A stretch of DNA of 64,000 bases from Escherichia coli (GTDB taxonomy: Bacteria; Pseudomonadota; Gammaproteobacteria; Enterobacterales; Enterobacteriaceae). The translations under genes and the position numbers were made by a program. This document shows positions 1,647 to 59,200 of the stretch, piece after piece; the stretch's first letter is position 1; each line of letters opens with the position of its first letter. The notes below the pieces were generated by a model that saw nothing but the letters and a program-made list of their open reading frames with translations, was not told the DNA's origin and ran no database searches. The DNA is taken from the NCBI RefSeq assembly GCF_002854065.1, contig NZ_CP024147.1, one strand, 5' to 3'.

Positions 1647-1722
<76 letters not shown>

Positions 1723-1758
1723 AAATTTGAAAAGTGCTGCAAAGCACAGACCACCCAA

Positions 1759-1834
<76 letters not shown>

Positions 1835-1869
1835 AAATTTGAAAGTGCTGCAAAGCACAGACCACCCAA

Positions 1870-1945
<76 letters not shown>

Positions 1946-2215: not shown

Positions 2216-3354
2216 CAGGCGTCACGCGGTAACCCTTTTTCAATTACCCGAACCAGACGCTGTTTTTTCGGCAATTGCACTTCGACTATGCACGCATTTC
2301 GCCTCTCGATTTGCTGCGCCATCGCCCACGCTATGTGCTCATCAAGAAGTGGGTGCTCACCTTTGCGACTCTCCAGCGCCGCCAGAATCGTTTCATCCCA
2401 GGGCGCATTGCCTAATGCCACGGCGATATTACGCAGCCAGCGCAGGTGACCTATACGGCGAATCGCCGAACCTTCCGTGACTTTTAAAAACTTCTCTTCG
2501 CTCCAGGCGAATAACTCAATGAGTTCCGGTGCGTGTAGCGGCTTACGCGGGCTGAAATCGTCTTCTGTAGTGAGTTGTGAATAGCGATTCCACGGGCAGA
2601 TAAGCTGGCAGTCATCGCAACCGTAAATACGGTTTCCCATTAACGGTCGCAACTCTTCCGGGATCGCCCCTTCCAGTTCGATGGTGAGATAAGAGATACA
2701 GCGGCGAGCATCGACGGTATATGGCTCGACGATGGCACCGGTCGGGCAAATCGTCATACAGGCCACGCATTTGCCGCATCCTTCCTCGACTGGTTGATCC
2801 ACGGGCAGCGGAATATCGACCAGCAATTCGCCTAAAAAGAAGAACGAACCGGCCTCGCGATTGAGGATAAGTGAGTGCTTACCTGTCCAGCCGAGCCCAG
2901 CTTTTTCAGCTAACGGGCGCTCGAGAATAGGCGCAGAATCGACAAACGGTCTAAAATTCAGCGAAACACAATGTTGCTGAATCATCTCGCCCAGCTTTTT
3001 GAGTCGGTTGCGCAGAAGTTTGTGATAGTCACGGCCCAGCGCATAACGGCTAACATAGCCGAGTTTGGGGTTTTTCAGCGTGCTGGCAAATGCGGCGTTA
3101 GCAGGAAGGTAATTCATCCGCACGCTGATCACGCGCAGCGTACCGGGCAATAACTCATGGGGGCGAGCGCGCAGCATACCGTGACGTGCCATCCAGTCCA
3201 TTTCGCCGTGGTATTGTTTGTCCAGCCATGCTTGCAGTTTGGGCTCGGACTCGCTGAGATCGGTATCGGTAATACCTACCTGCTGAAAGCCCAGTTCCAG
3301 CCCCCACTGTTTAATTTTTTGCGCTAACTGATTGAGATCGAGGGGCTCTGACAT
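2215..3354 (-). CDS. queG: Epoxyqueuosine reductase QueG (YjeS), 4Fe-4S / cobalamin enzyme
   Basis: Track ORF 2215..3462; QueG starts at internal Met (MSEPLDLNQLAQKIKQWGLELGFQQVGITD); two CxxCxxCxxxCP ferredoxin motifs; 379 aa. Confidence 0.93.
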   Translation of the reverse strand: MSEPLDLNQLAQKIKQWGLELGFQQVGITDTDLSESEPKLQAWLDKQYHGEMDWMARHGMLRARPHELLPGTLRVISVRMNYLPANAAFASTLKNPKLGYVSRYALGRDYHKLLRNRLKKLGEMIQQHCVSLNFRPFVDSAPILERPLAEKAGLGWTGKHSLILNREAGSFFFLGELLVDIPLPVDQPVEEGCGKCVACMTICPTGAIVEPYTVDARRCISYLTIELEGAIPEELRPLMGNRIYGCDDCQLICPWNRYSQLTTEDDFSPRKPLHAPELIELFAWSEEKFLKVTEGSAIRRIGHLRWLRNIAVALGNAPWDETILAALESRKGEHPLLDEHIAWAMAQQIERRNACIVEVQLPKKQRLVRVIEKGLPRDA

Positions 3355-3367
3355 GACGGACCATACA

Positions 3368-5333
<1,966 letters not shown>

Positions 5334-5351: not shown

Positions 5352-6680
5352 ATGATGTATCGCATCAGAAATTGGTTGGTAGCGACGTTGCTGCTGCTGT
5401 GCGCGCAGGTGGGTGCCGCGACGCTCTCTGATATTCAGGTTTCTAACGGCAATCAACAGGCGCGGATAACGTTGAGTTTTATTGGCGATCCTGATTATGC
5501 GTTTAGCCATCAAAGCAAACGCACCGTGGCGCTCGATATCAAACAAACGGGCGTGATTCAGGGACTGCCGTTGTTGTTCAGCGGTAATAATCTGGTGAAG
5601 GCGATTCGCTCCGGAACGCCTAAAGATGCACAAACGCTACGGCTGGTGGTCGATCTTACCGAAAACGGTAAAACCGAAGCGGTGAAGCGGCAGAATGGCA
5701 GCAATTACACTGTCGTCTTTACGATTAACGCAGATGTGCCACCGCCGCCGCCCGTGGTTGCGAAACGCGTTGAAACGCCTGCGGTTGTCGCACCGCGCGT
5801 CAGCGAACCGGCGCGCAATCCGTTTAAAACGGAAAGTAACCGCACTACGGGTGTTATCAGCAGTAATACGGTAACGCGTCCGGCAGCCCGCGCGACGGCT
5901 AACACTGGCGATAAAATTATCATCGCTATTGATGCCGGACACGGCGGTCAGGACCCTGGCGCTATCGGCCCCGGCGGTACGCGGGAGAAAAATGTCACCA
6001 TCGCCATTGCGCGTAAATTACGTACCTTGCTCAATGACGATCCGATGTTTAAGGGCGTTTTAACCCGTGACGGGGATTACTTTATCTCGGTGATGGGGCG
6101 CAGCGATGTGGCACGTAAGCAAAACGCCAATTTCCTCGTGTCGATTCACGCTGATGCCGCACCGAACCGCAGTGCGACTGGCGCTTCCGTATGGGTGCTC
6201 TCTAACCGTCGCGCCAACAGCGAAATGGCCAGCTGGCTGGAGCAGCACGAGAAACAGTCGGAGCTGCTGGGCGGGGCGGGTGATGTGCTGGCGAACAGTC
6301 AGTCTGACCCCTATTTAAGCCAGGCGGTGCTGGATTTACAGTTCGGTCATTCCCAGCGGGTAGGGTATGATGTAGCGACCAGTATGATCAGTCAGTTGCA
6401 ACGCATTGGCGAAATACATAAACGTCGGCCAGAACATGCCAGCCTTGGCGTTCTGCGTTCGCCGGATATCCCATCAGTACTGGTCGAAACCGGTTTTATC
6501 AGCAACAACAGCGAAGAACGTTTGCTGGCGAGCGACGATTACCAACAACAGCTGGCAGAAGCCATTTACAAAGGCCTGCGCAATTATTTCCTTGCGCATC
6601 CGATGCAATCTGCGCCGCAGGGGGCAACGGCACAAACGGCCAGTACGGTGACGACGCCAGATCGCACGCTGCCAAACTAA
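5352..6680 (+). CDS. amiB: N-acetylmuramoyl-L-alanine amidase AmiB
   Basis: Track ORF 5337..6680; signal peptide [23 protein letters not shown]; Amidase_3 domain ([14 protein letters not shown]); LysM-like C-terminus; internal Pro5 tract. Confidence 0.92.
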
Positions 6681-6689
6681 GGACGATTG

Positions 6690-8537
6690 ATGCCAATTCA
6701 GGTCTTACCGCCACAACTGGCGAACCAGATTGCCGCAGGTGAGGTGGTCGAGCGACCTGCGTCGGTAGTCAAAGAACTGGTGGAAAACAGCCTCGATGCA
6801 GGTGCGACGCGTATCGATATTGATATCGAACGCGGTGGGGCGAAACTTATCCGCATTCGTGATAACGGCTGCGGTATCAAAAAAGACGAGCTGGCGCTGG
6901 CGCTGGCGCGTCATGCCACCAGTAAAATCGCCTCTCTGGACGATCTCGAAGCCATTATCAGCCTGGGCTTTCGCGGTGAGGCGCTGGCGAGTATCAGTTC
7001 GGTTTCCCGCCTGACGCTCACTTCACGCACCGCAGAACAGCAGGAAGCCTGGCAGGCCTATGCCGAAGGGCGCGATATGGACGTGACGGTTAAACCGGCG
7101 GCGCATCCGGTGGGAACGACGCTGGAGGTACTGGACCTGTTCTACAACACCCCGGCGCGGCGCAAATTCCTGCGCACCGAGAAAACCGAATTTAACCATA
7201 TCGATGAAATCATCCGCCGCATCGCACTGGCGCGTTTCGACGTCACGATCAACCTGTCGCATAACGGCAAAATCGTACGCCAGTACCGCGCGGTGCCGGA
7301 AGGCGGGCAAAAAGAACGGCGCTTAGGCGCGATTTGTGGCACCGCTTTTCTCGAACAAGCGCTGGCGATTGAATGGCAACACGGCGATCTCACGCTGCGC
7401 GGCTGGGTGGCCGATCCAAATCACACCACGCCCGCACTGGCGGAAATTCAGTATTGCTACGTGAATGGTCGCATGATGCGCGATCGCCTGATCAATCACG
7501 CGATCCGCCAGGCCTGTGAAGACAAACTGGGGGCCGATCAGCAACCTGCATTTGTGTTGTATCTGGAGATCGACCCGCATCAGGTGGACGTCAACGTACA
7601 CCCCGCCAAACACGAAGTGCGTTTCCATCAGTCGCGTCTGGTGCATGATTTTATCTATCAGGGCGTGCTGAGCGTGCTACAACAGCAACTGGAAACGCCG
7701 CTACCGCTGGACGATGAACCCCAACCTGCACCGCGTCCCATTCCGGAAAACCGCGTGGCGGCGGGGCGCAATCACTTTGCAGAACCGGCAGCTCGTGAGC
7801 CGGTAGCTTCGCGCTACTCTCCTGCGCCCGCCTCAGGCAGTCGTCCGGCTGCCCCTTGGCCGAATGCGCAGCCAGGCTATCAGAAACAGCAAGGTGAAGT
7901 GTATCGCCAGCTTTTGCAAACGCCCGCGCCGATGCAAAAACCAAAAGCGCCGGAACCGCAGGAACCTGCACTTGCGGCGAACAGTCAGAGTTTTGGTCGG
8001 GTACTGACTATCGTCCATTCCGACTGTGCGTTGCTGGAGCGCGACGGCAACATTTCACTTTTAGCCTTGCCAGTGGCAGAACGTTGGCTGCGTCAGGCAC
8101 AATTGACGCCGGGTGAAGCGTCCGTTTGCGCCCAGCCGTTGCTGATTCCGTTGCGGCTAAAAGTTTCTGGCGAAGAAAAATCGGCATTAGAAAAAGCGCA
8201 GTCTGCCCTGGCGGAATTGGGTATTGAATTTCAGTCCGATGCGCAGCATGTGACCATCAGGGCCGTGCCTTTACCCTTACGCCAACAAAATTTACAAATC
8301 TTGATTCCTGAACTGATAGGCTACCTGGCGAAGCAGTCCGTATTCGAACCTGGCAATATTGCGCAGTGGATTGCACGAAATCTGATGAGCGAACATGCGC
8401 AGTGGTCAATGGCACAGGCCATAACCCTGCTGGCGGACGTGGAACGGTTATGTCCGCAACTTGTGAAAACGCCGCCGGGTGGTCTGTTACAATCTGTTGA
8501 TTTACATCCGGCGATAAAAGCCCTGAAAGATGAGTGA
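6690..8537 (+). CDS. mutL: DNA mismatch repair protein MutL
   Basis: 615-aa ORF; GHKL ATPase motifs ([16 protein letters not shown]); begins [20 protein letters not shown]. Confidence 0.96.
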
Positions 8538-30987: not shown

Positions 30988-31451
30988 ATGAAATTACGTG
31001 ATTCGCTGGCGGAGAATAAATCCATCCGCCTGCAGGCTGAAGCAGAGACATGGCAGGACGCAGTGAAAATCGGCGTTGACCTGCTGGTGCGGCGGATGTT
31101 GTCGAGCCGCGTTACTACCAGGCGATTCTGGATGCGGTTGAACAGCACGGTCCGTACTTTGTGCTCGCACCAGGCCTGGCAATGCCGCACGGTCGCCCGG
31201 AAGAGGGCGTTAAGAAAACCGGTTTTGCGCTAGTGACGCTGAAAAAGCCGCTGGAGTTCAACCACGAAGATAATGACCCTGTGGATATCCTCATCACCAT
31301 GGCGGCGGTCGATGCCAACACGCACCAGGAAGTAGGCATCATGCAGATCGTCAACCTGTTTGAAGATGAAGAAAATTTCGACCGTTTACGTGCCTGCCGT
31401 ACCGAGCAGGAAGTACTGGATCTCATTGACCGCACCAACGCGGCAGCTTAA
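30988..31451 (+). pseudogene. ulaC: ulaC (ascorbate PTS EIIA) disrupted by a 1-nt deletion near 31089
   Basis: Track splits it into ORF 30988..31233 (correct for 34 aa [34 protein letters not shown], then out of frame) and ORF 31161..31451 (UlaC C-terminus [18 protein letters not shown]...DRTNAAA); total span 464 nt, not a multiple of 3. Confidence 0.85.
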
Positions 31452-34069: not shown

Positions 34070-34377
34070 AGATACCTCCTCGACGGCTGACTTTGTGTGC
34101 TCTCCTCTGTGATGATCTTCTGATTTAATTTTAATCAATGATAAAGAAGTTGATGGTGACCATTTCTGATGCAGTTGTTCGAAAAAACACTGTGACGGAA
34201 TGTGATGAACTTCAAATCAGCGGTTTAGAGGTTATTTGCGAAAGGGGAGATTTATTTCTGCTCCGCCCTTGAGTTTAGCGGGGTATGTCAGTACTATAAC
34301 GCGTCATTTTTCAGCCGACCTTTAACACGTTCCTTGCCTCCCCGGGATTCGGCTGACCCAGACAGGAGGCTGAATAA

Positions 34378-34791
<414 letters not shown>

Positions 34792-35936: not shown

Positions 35937-37214
35937 TTAGCTTGTCGCTAACTGTACTTGCGGTTCTTCATCTTTAACTTTGATAAGCGTCCACAGCGCA
36001 ATGGCGCCAATAATGTCAAAGAAAGCCAGGGCAATAAAGAACGGCGCGAAGCCGATAATGTGAACGAATGCCCCGATAAACAGGTTGAAAATCAACTGAC
36101 CGCTCCACGCACAGGCTCCTGCCATACCCACTGCGGTAGCTACTTCGTCTTTTTTGAACAGATCGCCACCCAGAGTTGCTGCTACAGTAGAAAGACATTG
36201 ATGCGAGAACGCGCCAATACTAATCAGTAATACGGCAATGTAGGGATTTTCGACAATACTCACCAGGCCAATCGTCATCATAATGACGGCTGCAATAGTG
36301 AAGGTAATTCTTCGTGAGTTAATTAAACTCACGCCGCGATCGTGGAAGAACTTCGCGACAAAACCACTGGCTAAACAGCCGAGATCGCCCAGCAGGAAAG
36401 GCAGCCAGACGAACATGGCAATTTCTTTCAGGCTAAAATGCAGCGTTTCGACGAAGAAAATCGGCACCCAGAAGTTAATGGTTCCCCATGCCGGGTCTGC
36501 GAGAAAACGCGCGATGCCAATCCCCCAGAAATTACGTTGGCTGAGGATATGCTTGATTGACGTTTTTTCTTTCTTATCTGTTTTAAGATGCTGTTCTTGC
36601 CCTGATTCAATATAGTGGCGCTCTTCATCAGAAAGGCGTTTGGCATCTTTCGGATCTTTATAACAAAAGAACCAAAATAAAGCCGCGAGCAAAGCAAGGC
36701 TACCTGAAACAATAAACGCAAATTGCCAGCTATGAAACATAATGCACCAGGCAATCAACGGTGGAGCAAGCATCGCGCCGAGTGAGGTGCCCATATTGAA
36801 AACACCTGTCGCCACGCCACGCTCTTTTGCCGGGAACCATGTTGATGCGGTTTTTACACCCGCCGGAATTGCCGACGCTTCGCTGAAACCCATCAGGGCG
36901 CGCATAAATGCCAGACCTGACCACGTTCCGGTTAGTGCATGGCCCATTGTCGCCAGGCCCCAAATTGCGGCACATATCGCAAAACTTAACTTCAGACCCA
37001 CGGTATCAATAAAGAAGCCCATTACCGGTTGCCCTAATGTATAGGCCAACTGGAATGCACTGACAATCCATGAATATTGCTCTTTAGTTATTCCGGTTGT
37101 CTCCATAATCGTTGGAGCCGCAATACCTAACGCCGTTCTGTCCAGATAATTGATTACAGTGATAAAGCATACGAGGGCAATCATATGCCACCGGTAATTC
37201 GGTAATGACTCCAA
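35937..37214 (-). CDS. MFS transporter, anion:cation symporter (ACS) family, ExuT/GudP-like; 5' end abuts IS1 (track start codon TTG lies inside the IS1 terminus; first native in-frame ATG gives MIALVCF...)
   Basis: 425-aa ORF with ~12 predicted TM segments and ACS-family sequence character (resemblance to ExuT from memory); not at this position in K-12 as I recall. Confidence 0.75.
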   Translation of the reverse strand: MESLPNYRWHMIALVCFITVINYLDRTALGIAAPTIMETTGITKEQYSWIVSAFQLAYTLGQPVMGFFIDTVGLKLSFAICAAIWGLATMGHALTGTWSGLAFMRALMGFSEASAIPAGVKTASTWFPAKERGVATGVFNMGTSLGAMLAPPLIAWCIMFHSWQFAFIVSGSLALLAALFWFFCYKDPKDAKRLSDEERHYIESGQEQHLKTDKKEKTSIKHILSQRNFWGIGIARFLADPAWGTINFWVPIFFVETLHFSLKEIAMFVWLPFLLGDLGCLASGFVAKFFHDRGVSLINSRRITFTIAAVIMMTIGLVSIVENPYIAVLLISIGAFSHQCLSTVAATLGGDLFKKDEVATAVGMAGACAWSGQLIFNLFIGAFVHIIGFAPFFIALAFFDIIGAIALWTLIKVKDEEPQVQLATS

Positions 37215-37215
37215 C

Positions 37216-37719
37216 TTATTGATAGTGTTTTATGTTCAGATAATGCCCGATGACTTTGTCATGCAGCTCCACCGATTTTGAGAACGACAGCGACTTCCGT
37301 CCCAGCCGTGCCAGGTGCTGCCTCAGATTCAGGTTATGCCGCTCAATTCGCTGCGTATATCGCTTGCTGATTACGTGCAGCTTTCCCTTCAGGCGGGATT
37401 CATACAGCGGCCAGCCATCCGTCATCCATATCACCACGTCAAAGGGTGACAGCAGGCTCATAAGACGCCCCAGCGTCGCCATAGTGCGTTCACCGAATAC
37501 GTGCGCAACAACCGTCTTCCGGAGCCTGTCATACGCGTAAAACAGCCAGCGCTGGCGCGATTTAGCCCCGACGTATCCCCACTGTTCGTCCATTTCCGCG
37601 CAGACGATGACGTCACTGCCCGGCTGTATGCGCGAGGTTACCGACTGCGGCCTGAGTTTTTTAAATGGCGGAAAATCGTGTTGAGGCCAACGCCCATAAT
37701 GCGGGCGGTTGCCCGGCAT
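37216..37719 (-). CDS. insB: IS1 transposase InsB (expressed as InsAB' by -1 frameshift)
   Basis: 167-aa [61 protein letters not shown]. Confidence 0.95.
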
Positions 37720-37913
37720 CCAACGCCATTCATGGCCATATCAATGATTTTCTGGTGCGTACCGGGTTGAGAAGCGGTGTAAGTGAACTGCAGTTGCCAT
37801 GTTTTACGGCAGTGAGAGCAGAGATAGCGCTGATGTCCGGCAGTGCTTTTGCCGTTACGCACCACCCCGTCAGTAGCTGAACAGGAGGGACAGCTGATAG
37901 AAACAGAAGCCAC
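37638..37913 (-). CDS. insA: IS1 protein InsA (transposition inhibitor / N-terminal part of transposase)
   Basis: 91-aa [94 protein letters not shown]. Confidence 0.95.
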
Positions 37914-37971
37914 TGGAGCACCTCAAAAACACCATCATACACTAAATCAGTAAGTTGGCAGCATCACCCAT

Positions 37972-38610
37972 CTACTGCGCACGAATAAAACTGCCATCCG
38001 GCTGGCGGGTAAACAGGACCTGTTGATTATTCCCCGTATCAATAGTTAAGCCCGTCACCACGCCGCTGGCGTTCTGGCGGATTTTCACCATCTGCCCGTT
38101 TTGCAAATTACTCAGCGGCTTACCCGCGCCTTCTACCTGCGCCATTGCATAGACATCGGTAGCGGGCAGTCCGTGGTCGCGGAACAGCTGCGCCATCGTT
38201 TTACCGGGTTCGACACGGTAAGAGCGCCATTGATTATCAATTCCGCTATCTGGCTGGAATGGTTGTGTTTGGGTAGTTTGCGGCTGTTCTTCTGGCTGGC
38301 CTTCCTGTATAGGTTCTGGAGCGACCGGAGCCACCTGATCAGGATCATTTTGTGGTGTGACTAATTGCGCCCGCAGCTGTTCTTCTGTCGGCGGTTGTGA
38401 TTGCGACTGAATATCTAACTGCGCTTCACGCGTCACCACCGGCGCGTTGGGCGTATCATCAGATGGAAGCAGAAATCCGACCACCAATATAATGGCGGCA
38501 ATAATGATCCCCCGACGATGCATCGGCGGCAGCGGGTCCATGAAGCGAAAATTGTCCGGCGCGTGCCAGACTTTCTCCAGGGTTGGTTTTAGTTCAAAGC
38601 GCCCGGGCAT
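37972..38610 (-). CDS. ytfB: Cell-division protein YtfB (OapA / LysM-like domain)
   Basis: Track ORF 37972..38646; start MPGRFELKPTLEKVWHAPDNFRFMD; Pro/Gln-rich linker; stop codon 3 nt from IS1 end. Confidence 0.9.
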   Translation of the reverse strand: MPGRFELKPTLEKVWHAPDNFRFMDPLPPMHRRGIIIAAIILVVGFLLPSDDTPNAPVVTREAQLDIQSQSQPPTEEQLRAQLVTPQNDPDQVAPVAPEPIQEGQPEEQPQTTQTQPFQPDSGIDNQWRSYRVEPGKTMAQLFRDHGLPATDVYAMAQVEGAGKPLSNLQNGQMVKIRQNASGVVTGLTIDTGNNQQVLFTRQPDGSFIRAQ

Positions 38611-38828
38611 GGTTTCCTCCTGCTCCGCGTCTTGTTCCTCAATCATAGCCTATGAATAAGCTAACGCTATGATGTCCGTGGTAAACCCGCCTTTATTATA
38701 TTCATACGGGATATTGCTATTGTTTCTTTTTCCCCGGGATTTGTCATCATTCCTGCGACAAAGTTTTACCCAAAGAAGTGTGGCTGATATGCTGCCCGCT
38801 ACTTTTATACCCTAAGAAAGGAAATACG

Positions 38829-44511: not shown

Positions 44512-46484
44512 TTACTTACTCAAATCCACCTGATAAATCGCAAACCCGATATCATCGGTCGCGACTTTATTCATCGGATATTGCCCTTTCTCTTTAATAA
44601 ACGCTGCGGCTTTATCTGACGGGGAAGTTTCGAAACGGATATCCAGTTTCTTATCGCCGGCTATCGGTGCTAAACGCCAGTTGTTATCTGCCGCCGGGTG
44701 AATTTCCCCCGCACGTTTCGACTCATCAGCAATCCACGCTGCCAGCACCGAGCGGTTCTCATCCGGTGAAGCAAAAGCGATATGGCTGTCGCCCGTACCG
44801 GCAAATTTGCCGCCGTAAGCGCGATAGTTATTGGTGGCAACGAGGAACATGGCGTTCGGATCAATCGGCTTGCCGTTAAAGGTCAGGTTCTTAATCCTTT
44901 CCGCATTGGCATTAACCATCTGGCACTCGCCGTCATAACGGGCAGGCTGGGTAACATCAATCTGATAATTCACACCATCAATCACATCAAAGTTATAGGT
45001 GCGGAAACCATCCCAGTTGATGAGTGACTGTGGTTTCGTGTTGTCAGGATCAATCTGGTTAAACTGTCCGGCGGAGCACTCCAGCCACTCTTTCACCTCT
45101 TTACCGCTGGCTTTCACCACAATCAGCGTATTGGGGTAGAGATAAAGATCGGCGGCATTACGGAAGGTCAACTGGCCTTTTTCCACCTCCACATAGCTTG
45201 CCGGATCATTTTTGCGACCACCAACTTTAAACGGTGCAGCAGCTGAAAGCACCGGCAGTTTTGCCAGATCCGGATCGTCCTGAATGTAATGCTCGACATA
45301 CGCTTTTTGCGCGTTGTTCACCACCTGCACGGTCGGATCGTCCTGCACCAGCGCCAGATAGCTATACATATTGTCGGCGGATTTACCGATTGGCTTGCTG
45401 ACGAACTGGCGTGTGGCATCGTGATCGGCTTTGAGTGTTTCTACCAGCTTGCTGTCTTCCGCCGCGAGGGATTTTTTATTGGCGATGTCGTAAATCGGCC
45501 GTGCTTCCGCTTTCGCCTGCGTCACCTGCCATTTACCGCTGTTATTACTGAGTTGTAAGTCGACCACCCCAAGATGATCGCCCCACATGCCCGGCATTAC
45601 CGCCGGAACACCATTCAGCGTGCCTTTCGCGATATCAGCCCCTTCGATACGATATCAGCCCCTTCGATATCAGCAAAATCTTTACCTGGGAAAACGGCGT
45701 GAGCATGGCCAAACATAATGGCGTTAACGCCAGGAATTTCACTGAGGTAATAAACTGAGTTTTCCGCCATCACTTTATACGGATCGGCAGATAGCCCGGA
45801 ATGCGCCAGAACGACAACGACATCGGCACCTTTCTCGCGCATTTCAGGCACGTATTTGCGCACGGTTTCGGTAATATCATTCACCGTCACTTTTCCGGAT
45901 AAATTAGCTTTATCCCAGCCCATGATTTGCGGCGGCACGACGCCAATATAGCCAATCTTCAGCGTCTGTTTTTTTCCGTCTTTATCGACCACTTCGGTAT
46001 CTTTAATTAAATACGGTGTAAACATTGGCTGTTTGGTTCTGGCGTCAATGACGTTGGCATTTACATAAGGGAATTTCGCTCCCGCCAACGCATTTTTCAG
46101 GTAATCCAGACCGTAGTTAAATTCATGATTGCCGAGTGTACCGACCGTATAATCCAGCGTATTCAGCGCCTTATAAACCGGATGAACATCACCTGCTTTT
46201 AATCCTTTCGCCGATATGTAATCGGCCAGCGGACTCCCCTGAATCAAATCGCCGTTATCGACCAGTACGCTGTTTTTCACTTCATTGCGGGCATCGTTAA
46301 TCAGGCTTGCCGTACGTACCAGTCCGAATTTTTCCGTGGCGGTGTCTTTGTAATAATCGAAATCCATCATGTTGCTATGCAGATCAGTGGTTTCCATGAT
46401 ACGTAGATCGACCGTCGCTGCATTCACACTGGCGGCAATCAGCGTGGCCAGGAGCGTTGCGCTAAACTTAATCATCAGGGACAT
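44512..46484 (-). pseudogene. cpdB: cpdB (periplasmic 2',3'-cyclic-nucleotide 2'-phosphodiesterase / 3'-nucleotidase) split by a 20-bp tandem duplication
   Basis: N-terminal ORF 45615..46484 (signal peptide [36 protein letters not shown], ends ...[19 protein letters not shown]) and C-terminal ORF 44512..45597 ([15 protein letters not shown]...) are adjacent and co-directional; removing one 20-bp copy rejoins them in frame. Confidence 0.85.
45630..45669. repeat. Perfect 20-bp tandem duplication CGATATCAGCCCCTTCGATA x2 inside cpdB
   Basis: Read directly: 45630-45649 and 45650-45669 identical. Confidence 0.9.
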
Positions 46485-46664
46485 CCTTTTATCATCGGGA
46501 ATACGAAAGAAAAGGGAGAATAAACGCCTTACTTATAGAACAGTGAAGAATGCCACAATTTTACGCTTTGAAAATGATGACACTATCACAGTTGGCGCAT
46601 TCATTAACGATAGGGTATAAGTAAAACAATAAGTTAACACCGCTCACAGAGACGAGGTGGAGAA

Positions 46665-49888: not shown

Positions 49889-50064
49889 ATCTTATCCGAC
49901 CTTTCAGGCCAGATCCTCGGAAGGGGAAGTTGATTAATTTGTGTGAAATACACATTGAAAGCCGATTCGAAGAAAGTGAACCGGCATTTTCAGTGGCTAG
50001 TATAGCGTAAGGTACTGTAAAGTCGCCAGAGGGTTAAAATTCAGACTGCTGATAAATGCAATAC

Positions 50065-50165
50065 TGCCTGATGCGCTATGCCAATCAGGCCTACGCAGTC
50101 CTTGCAATATATTGAATTTGGACGATTTTGTAGGCCTGGTAAGGCGTTTACGCCGCATCTGGCAT
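50065..50165. repeat. REP/BIME palindromic elements
   Basis: GCCTGATGCGCTATGCCAATCAGGCCTAC ... GTAGGCCTGGTAAGGCGTTTACGCCGCATCTGGCA. Confidence 0.8.
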
Positions 50166-59092: not shown

Positions 59093-59200
59093 ATGCCTGA
59101 TGCCGATTCGTAGGCCGGATAAGGCGCTCGCGCCGCATCCGGCGGTGGTGCGCTGAAGCCTGATGCGACGCTTACCGCGTCTTATCATGCCTACTGGGAG
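59093..59200. repeat. REP/BIME palindromic elements
   Basis: GCCTGATGCCGATTCGTAGGCCGGATAAGGCGCTCGCGCCGCATCCGGCGG ... GCCTGATGCGACGCTTACCGCGTCTTATCATGCCTAC. Confidence 0.8.

Follow-up and report, generated by a model that had tools for sequence, protein, structure and literature searches.

The window analysed here, the whole 64,000-nucleotide stretch of Escherichia coli DNA, harbours the gene amiB on the + strand at positions 5352–6680, with an ATG at 5352 and a coding capacity of 442 amino acids plus a stop codon (ORF list, Pfam and the RefSeq annotation of the genome CUWW06). The gene product is the N-acetylmuramoyl-L-alanine amidase AmiB, and the gene is located between tsaE (4872–5333) and mutL (6690–8537), with nnr at 3353–4900 (ORF list and RefSeq annotation of CUWW06). 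Two Pfam domains are present in the protein, both encoded on the + strand: AMIN (PF11741; 5430–5687, aa 27–112), a septal or peptidoglycan-targeting module (PMC10214136), and the catalytic domain Amidase_3 (PF01520; 5922–6581, aa 191–410; E = 2.7e-48, 164.7 bits). The AMIN match is marginal (20.8 bits, E 4.1e-4) and lies above the gathering cutoff of 20.5; it ends at profile position 88 of 101, and the AMIN fold may extend past aa 112. The segment outside both domains (5688–5921 on the + strand, aa 113–190) constitutes the inter-domain linker. By eye, the N-terminus of the protein looks like a putative export signal peptide. In the homologue search, the two top clusters of E. coli-type AmiB shared 98–99% identity with AmiB of the window. 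Furthermore, the gene order tsaE-amiB-mutL-miaA-hfq is the one conserved for AmiB, and RefSeq annotates the same coordinates of CUWW06 as AmiB (WP_032282036.1). With domains, synteny and annotation in agreement, the assignment of the gene to the AmiB family is straightforward.

Over its first 37.2 kb, the window differs from CUWW06 by 6 mismatches and one 1-nt gap. The gene ulaC (PTS ascorbate IIA; 30988–31451) is split into two ORFs, 30988–31233 (81 aa) and 31161–31451 (96 aa), by a 1-nt deletion at about 31089 in the context GGCGGCGG, relative to CUWW06. Among the 5,093 complete E. coli genomes in which the segment is present, not one carries this deletion (best match 99.2%, span 122 versus 121 nt), which is a frameshift private to this strain or else an error in the sequencing. 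Further downstream, an IS1 copy of 768 bp (37201–37968) is placed between an MFS-transporter gene (35937–37214, − strand) and ytfB (37972–38646, − strand), where it stands in place of ~7 kb found in CUWW06. The genes missing at this site encode a FAD-binding protein, a CoA transferase, a sugar-phosphate isomerase, a 3-ketoacyl-ACP reductase and a TetR protein, along with an enoyl-CoA hydratase pseudogene. Since the left IS1 junction is covered by no genome in the collection, the site looks like a strain-specific IS1-associated deletion. The RNA features of the window (1647–1945; 34314–34398; 46476–46598; 49950–50007, − strand; 50087–50129, − strand; 59113–59191) are routine, comprising three tandem tRNA-Gly genes, the RpsF leader and the sRNA families ES239, STnc450, ES036 and naRNA4.

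The feature under study is a polyproline tract in the linker of AmiB, encoded by CCA CCG CCG CCG CCC at 5739–5753 on the + strand (aa 130–134) and representing a rare short allele. In its context (GAT GTG ... GTG GTT), the tract reads D-V-PPPPP-V-V, and the ORF is intact and in frame across it. The preliminary description of this DNA had quoted the codon string exactly, had placed it between the AMIN and amidase domains, which the Pfam boundaries given above confirm, and had rightly taken the ORF to be in frame; its coordinates (5741–5760), however, begin 2 nt late and end 7 nt beyond the tract. From a reading of the sequence, the tract would come straight after the last AMIN strand. No other run of four or more Pro residues occurs in any ORF of 100 aa or longer in the 64-kb window. 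The only SSR-like part is a perfect period-3 run, CCGCCGCCGCC (5742–5752, + strand), of 11 nt or ~3.7 units, which has one match in the window (0.05 expected; one or more matches in 4 of 100 shuffles). Tandem Repeats Finder, run on amiB with a minimum score of 30, reported no array; thus, the tract is not a tandem array.

The polyproline run begins the AMIN-catalytic linker of the E. coli enzyme. Such a run forms a stiff rod of the PPII type, with a rise of ~3.1 Å per residue. In Pseudomonas aeruginosa, AmiB harbours a flexible linker of ~40 residues between AMIN and the catalytic domain, and upon activation of FtsEX-EnvC-AmiB this linker lets AMIN shift its position with respect to the catalytic domain (PMC10214136). 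In K-12, amiB carries eight Pro codons (codons 130–138), the longest such run in E. coli, which coincides with a sharp ribosome-footprint peak in ribosome profiling (PMC4402525). EF-P relieves the pausing of ribosomes at polyproline runs (Ude 2013 and Doerfel 2013, both cited by PMC4402525). The sequence criterion of an EF-P-dependent stalling motif is a stretch of at least three consecutive Pro codons, and the PPPPP of the window contains such a stretch. In the searchable literature on AmiB with EF-P, polyproline or stalling, PMC4402525 alone was relevant, while reports on the EF-P dependence of AmiB or on five versus eight Pro were not found; preprints on LL-37 and HflX name AmiB for other reasons.

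To survey the tract across complete E. coli genomes, a 114-bp query with the tract at its centre was used; it matched 5,417 of the 5,426 genomes. The whole amiB query matched 5,425 genomes, eight of them without a match to the 114-bp tract query. Two genomes of the collection carry amiB at just 90–95% identity. By exact count, 18 of the 5,417 genomes (0.33%) are 100% identical over the 114-bp query, none of the matched genomes falls at 95–99% identity, and those other than the 18 align to the query with gaps. Base-level alignment of representatives confined the length differences to the proline tract. Carriers of the five-codon allele include the EPEC strain E2348/69, CUWW06, 100416 and O157:H7 TR01, and the set holds two E2348/69-named assemblies as well as two further O127:H6 records.

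Apart from the five-codon form, four other lengths were encountered. Eight Pro codons are carried by K-12 DH1 (CCG CCA CCG CCT CCT CCG CCG CCC) as well as by O157:H7 2571 and XJ34, in which the tract is that of K-12 but with a final CCT, while F2_81 has seven (CCG CCA CCG CCT CCG CCG CCT). The six-codon allele (WGS1363, EcPF14 and an ST131 strain) is interrupted, reading CCG CCA TCG CCT CCG CCA followed by ATG (PPSPPP-M). EC42405 carries eleven Pro codons (CCG CCA CCG CCG CCA CCG CCT CCA CCG CCG CCA), an allele that looks like a 9-nt duplication with two synonymous changes. The longer K-12 tract mentioned in the preliminary description is therefore real (eight codons in DH1 and others, in agreement with PMC4402525), as is the variation between strains that it had anticipated: 5, 6, 7, 8 and 11 codons were seen, and an invariant length, which would have spoken against it, does not hold.

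The frequency of these alleles was estimated from two systematic samples of 60 genomes, each drawn across the whole match ranking. In the first, taken with the window query, the matched spans were 123 nt in 49 genomes, 117 nt in eight and 120 nt in one, the other two being 114 nt (the best match) and 132 nt (the weakest). The second, taken with the K-12 allele as query, gave 123 nt in 49 genomes, 117 nt in ten and 120 nt in one. All sampled spans in both sets are multiples of 3. Against the K-12 allele, 4,543 genomes showed at least 95% identity and 874 fell below 95%; these BLAST identity bands are coarse, separating alleles within one codon of eight (the upper band, in which the samples showed just seven and eight) from those of at most six or at least eleven codons. 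The finer frequencies accordingly come from the two 60-genome samples and are no census. On this basis, eight codons are estimated for ~82–84% of the 5,417 complete genomes, the interrupted six-codon form (PPSPPP, for example in ST131) for ~15%, seven codons for ~2% and eleven codons for at most ~0.1%.

Length is tied to the flanking haplotype. In the alignment of representatives, each length allele has its own linked flanking SNPs, for example GCA/GTG with the five-codon allele, TCG and ATG with the six-codon allele and, in the O157-type eight-codon allele, GCG together with a final CCT. The K-12 laboratory strains sampled all carry eight codons, as do the canonical O157:H7 strains sampled, while the ST131 genome sampled and the other 117-nt alleles have six. 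In all 20 listed strains labelled O145 or O145:H28, the amiB match is 6 nt longer than that of the window, consistent with seven codons. Length variation within a clone was seen in none of the few sampled genomes of K-12, O145, ST131-like and O157:H7 strains, which are a sample and not a census. The preliminary description had called the tract slippage-prone, and this claim stands in part: indels of 3, 6 or 9 nt fit misalignment among Pro codons, whereas the SNP-linked alleles and the uniformity of the sampled clones speak against frequent change.

The nearest relatives of the window, CUWW06 (100.0% over 25 kb), 100416 (99.9%) and O157:H7 TR01 (99.5%), all carry five Pro codons. In nearly all of the next-best genomes (~99.0–99.2%) the match spans 25,009 nt, as expected for the eight-codon allele with its 9 additional nt; in XJ34, the best of them, this allele was confirmed. 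Comparison of a 6.1-kb region (queG-nnr-tsaE-amiB-mutL-miaA) placed the short allele on a haplotype block at 5667–5974, as derived from a table of variable sites and a computation of identical blocks. The window is identical to N17 and 2022H047 over this entire block (308 bp) and to E2348/69, A25 and DCE7 over 5667–5887 (221 bp). Over the 6.1 kb, these five carriers of the five-codon allele differ from the window at 149–167 sites (~2.4–2.7%; 161–167 for E2348/69 and N17), while the XJ34/O157-type sequence is nearer to it (78–81 differences, 1.3%); in the 300-bp bin with the tract, the eight-codon strains XJ34 and O157:H7 2571 differ from the window at 9–10 sites. In the window, amiB is a recombination mosaic, in which a patch of 0.2–0.3 kb of the E2348/69- or N17-type is set in a region otherwise closer to XJ34/O157. 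O157:H7 TR01 shares this amiB-mutL haplotype, which is non-canonical for O157:H7, and differs from O157:H7 2571 at 75 sites in the 6.1 kb.

The same block occurs on three AmiB protein alleles, namely WP_032282036.1 (the window, CUWW06 and O157:H7 TR01), WP_000990274.1 (E2348/69) and WP_001552251.1 (N17 and 2022H047). Since an identical stretch of 221–308 bp is shared across backgrounds that diverge by ~2.7%, the most economical reading is that the five-codon allele appears to have arisen once and was then spread by homologous recombination or kept as an old polymorphism. An origin by repeated slippage was considered and is countered by the one identical block in divergent backgrounds. To get from eight codons to five would require two or more events (either a pair of deletions, or a single deletion plus two substitutions), so the history given here is provisional. 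Taken together, the SNP-tied alleles, the uniformity of the sampled clones, the preservation of frame in every case and the apparent single origin of the short allele identify the tract as a slowly evolving length polymorphism and not a hypermutable repeat.

Comparison with the 120 closest protein clusters extends this picture beyond E. coli. Homologues from Citrobacter and one labelled Salmonella carry the tract at the same position, directly after FTI(N/K)AD, with 5–9 Pro or with light interruptions (TPPPPAP, APPPSPPP); C. portucalensis alone shows 5, 6, 7 and 8 Pro. Every homologue among the 120 closest clusters keeps at least one PPP, so the Pro-rich segment is conserved while its exact length is not. 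As the tract is never lost among these homologues, some constraint on the presence of a Pro-rich segment exists, and its length could matter subtly. Rare AmiB proteins of E. coli, Shigella sonnei and S. flexneri (414–420 aa) have in-frame deletions of 25–31 aa in the linker and retain the eight-Pro tract; in window coordinates, these variants (P0008–P0011, P0013–P0016 and P0018) correspond to ~5790–5895, downstream of the tract. One of them (P0009) is present on 23 contigs, including a 5-Mb genome. The deletion end points lie, by eye, at short CGCGCG-like repeats (PRVSEP...RPAARAT). The tether between AMIN and the catalytic domain tolerates changes in length far above three residues. The natural series of 5, 6, 7, 8 and 11 codons, together with the deletions of 25–31 aa, portrays a tether that is flexible in length with its PPP core kept.

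The best explanation of these observations, to which we assign a probability of roughly 80%, is a near-neutral length polymorphism of the linker spacer of AmiB and not a switch. The tract, with its mixed Pro codons, would serve as a polyproline spacer in a periplasmic division amidase, set where the flexible linker adjoins AMIN. Its length would drift over evolutionary time by in-frame indels of 3, 6 or 9 nt, which are termed rare on the evidence of a few genomes per clone and not of all 5,417. Such indels would most likely result from replication misalignment among near-identical CCN codons, with selection removing the out-of-frame products. The five-codon allele would have a single origin, its short haplotype block being found now in several otherwise divergent lineages; this pattern points either to transfer of the allele by homologous recombination or to an ancient polymorphism that these lineages have in common. 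The effect of the short allele is expected to be small, as a linker of ~78 residues would lose 3 residues (~9 Å if the run is a PPII helix), and the allele is presumed to be nearly neutral. Furthermore, since the five-Pro tract retains PPP, a ribosome pause is expected at it and, by analogy with the K-12 tract, its translation should depend on EF-P.

Among the alternatives, an adaptive role for tract length fares best, though it is improbable. Here, the number of Pro residues would set the reach and stiffness of the tether or the EF-P-dependent pause, and lengths would be adapted in each lineage to its envelope or physiology. The position of the tract, conserved in Escherichia, Citrobacter and the one Salmonella-labelled homologue and always holding at least PPP, agrees with such a role, as do the pronounced pausing of ribosomes at the K-12 tract (PMC4402525) and the relocation of AMIN via the flexible linker upon FtsEX-EnvC-AmiB activation (PMC10214136). 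Nevertheless, 5–11 codons coexist in one species and 5–8 in a single Citrobacter species with no pattern discerned, and natural E. coli and Shigella maintain much larger linker deletions of 25–31 aa. Two points of general knowledge also count against it: amiA and amiC provide functional redundancy for amiB, and a run of about three prolines is already enough for polyproline stalling to saturate.

A hypermutable SSR or contingency locus, in which frequent slipped-strand mispairing yields AmiB variants within populations, is considerably harder to sustain. The 11-nt perfect CCG run and the several alleles that step by 3 nt in E. coli and Citrobacter are what would be expected of one, but the run has only ~3.7 units and forms no array at a Tandem Repeats Finder score of 30, while the common alleles mix CCG, CCA, CCT and CCC and are not pure repeats. 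Likewise, the sampled K-12, O145, ST131-like and O157:H7 genomes show one length each, the flanking SNPs are private to each length, and the 114-bp context is identical in all 18 five-codon genomes. Moreover, a 3-nt unit inside a coding sequence cannot switch the gene on or off. The class of contingency SSRs was thus rejected for this tract, which shows neither a long pure array, nor variation between close isolates (as sampled), nor switching of expression.

A more speculative regulatory proposal, slightly less plausible still, would have the number of Pro residues set an EF-P-sensitive pause in amiB that modulates AmiB output when EF-P is limiting, as well as read-through into the downstream genes mutL-miaA-hfq-hflX. 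If true, uncoupling of transcription and translation would provide a route to mutL-miaA-hfq-hflX, and the alleles of 5 to 11 codons would be regulatory variants of an operon of division, mismatch repair and Hfq. Finally, the short tract could be a product of faulty sequencing or assembly at a GC-rich repeat, and the private 1-nt deletion in ulaC could be cited as a sign that some indel error is possible in the source assembly. This explanation is rejected with near certainty, since 18 independently sequenced complete genomes, including the three closest relatives of the window, carry the five-codon allele in an identical 114-bp context and the tract is shorter by exactly 9 nt, which preserves the frame.

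The five-codon finding carries very little weight of its own. As the K-12 tract has been described and annotated reference genomes, E2348/69 among them, contain the five-codon allele, the finding is already known in kind. Its value is modest: besides the natural length series noted above, a small patch of recombination in amiB, beside mutL, can be recognised by the short allele, and the allele series offers ready material for relating polyproline length to EF-P-dependent translation in a native gene.

Set against known systems, the tract resembles the SSR contingency loci of pathogens in that its length changes in steps of a short unit, plausibly by strand misalignment; it differs from them in an array that is far too short and impure, in the uniformity of the sampled clones and in having no frameshift or on-off effect. 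With EF-P-dependent stalling motifs it shares a run of at least three Pro, and pausing has been observed for the eight-Pro allele of K-12. The AmiB tract of K-12 is the same in gene, in position after AMIN, in its flanks (TINAD-V/A ... VVAKRVETP) and in its mixed CCN codons; the difference lies in eight codons versus five, in the codon order of the window (CCA CCG CCG CCG CCC) and in a synonymous GCA in place of GCC two codons upstream. Further counterparts are the AmiB tracts of EPEC O127:H6 E2348/69 and of N17 and 2022H047, in which the rest of the 6.1-kb region differs and the protein alleles are other than that of the window, while the five-Pro tract and its surrounding DNA are identical.
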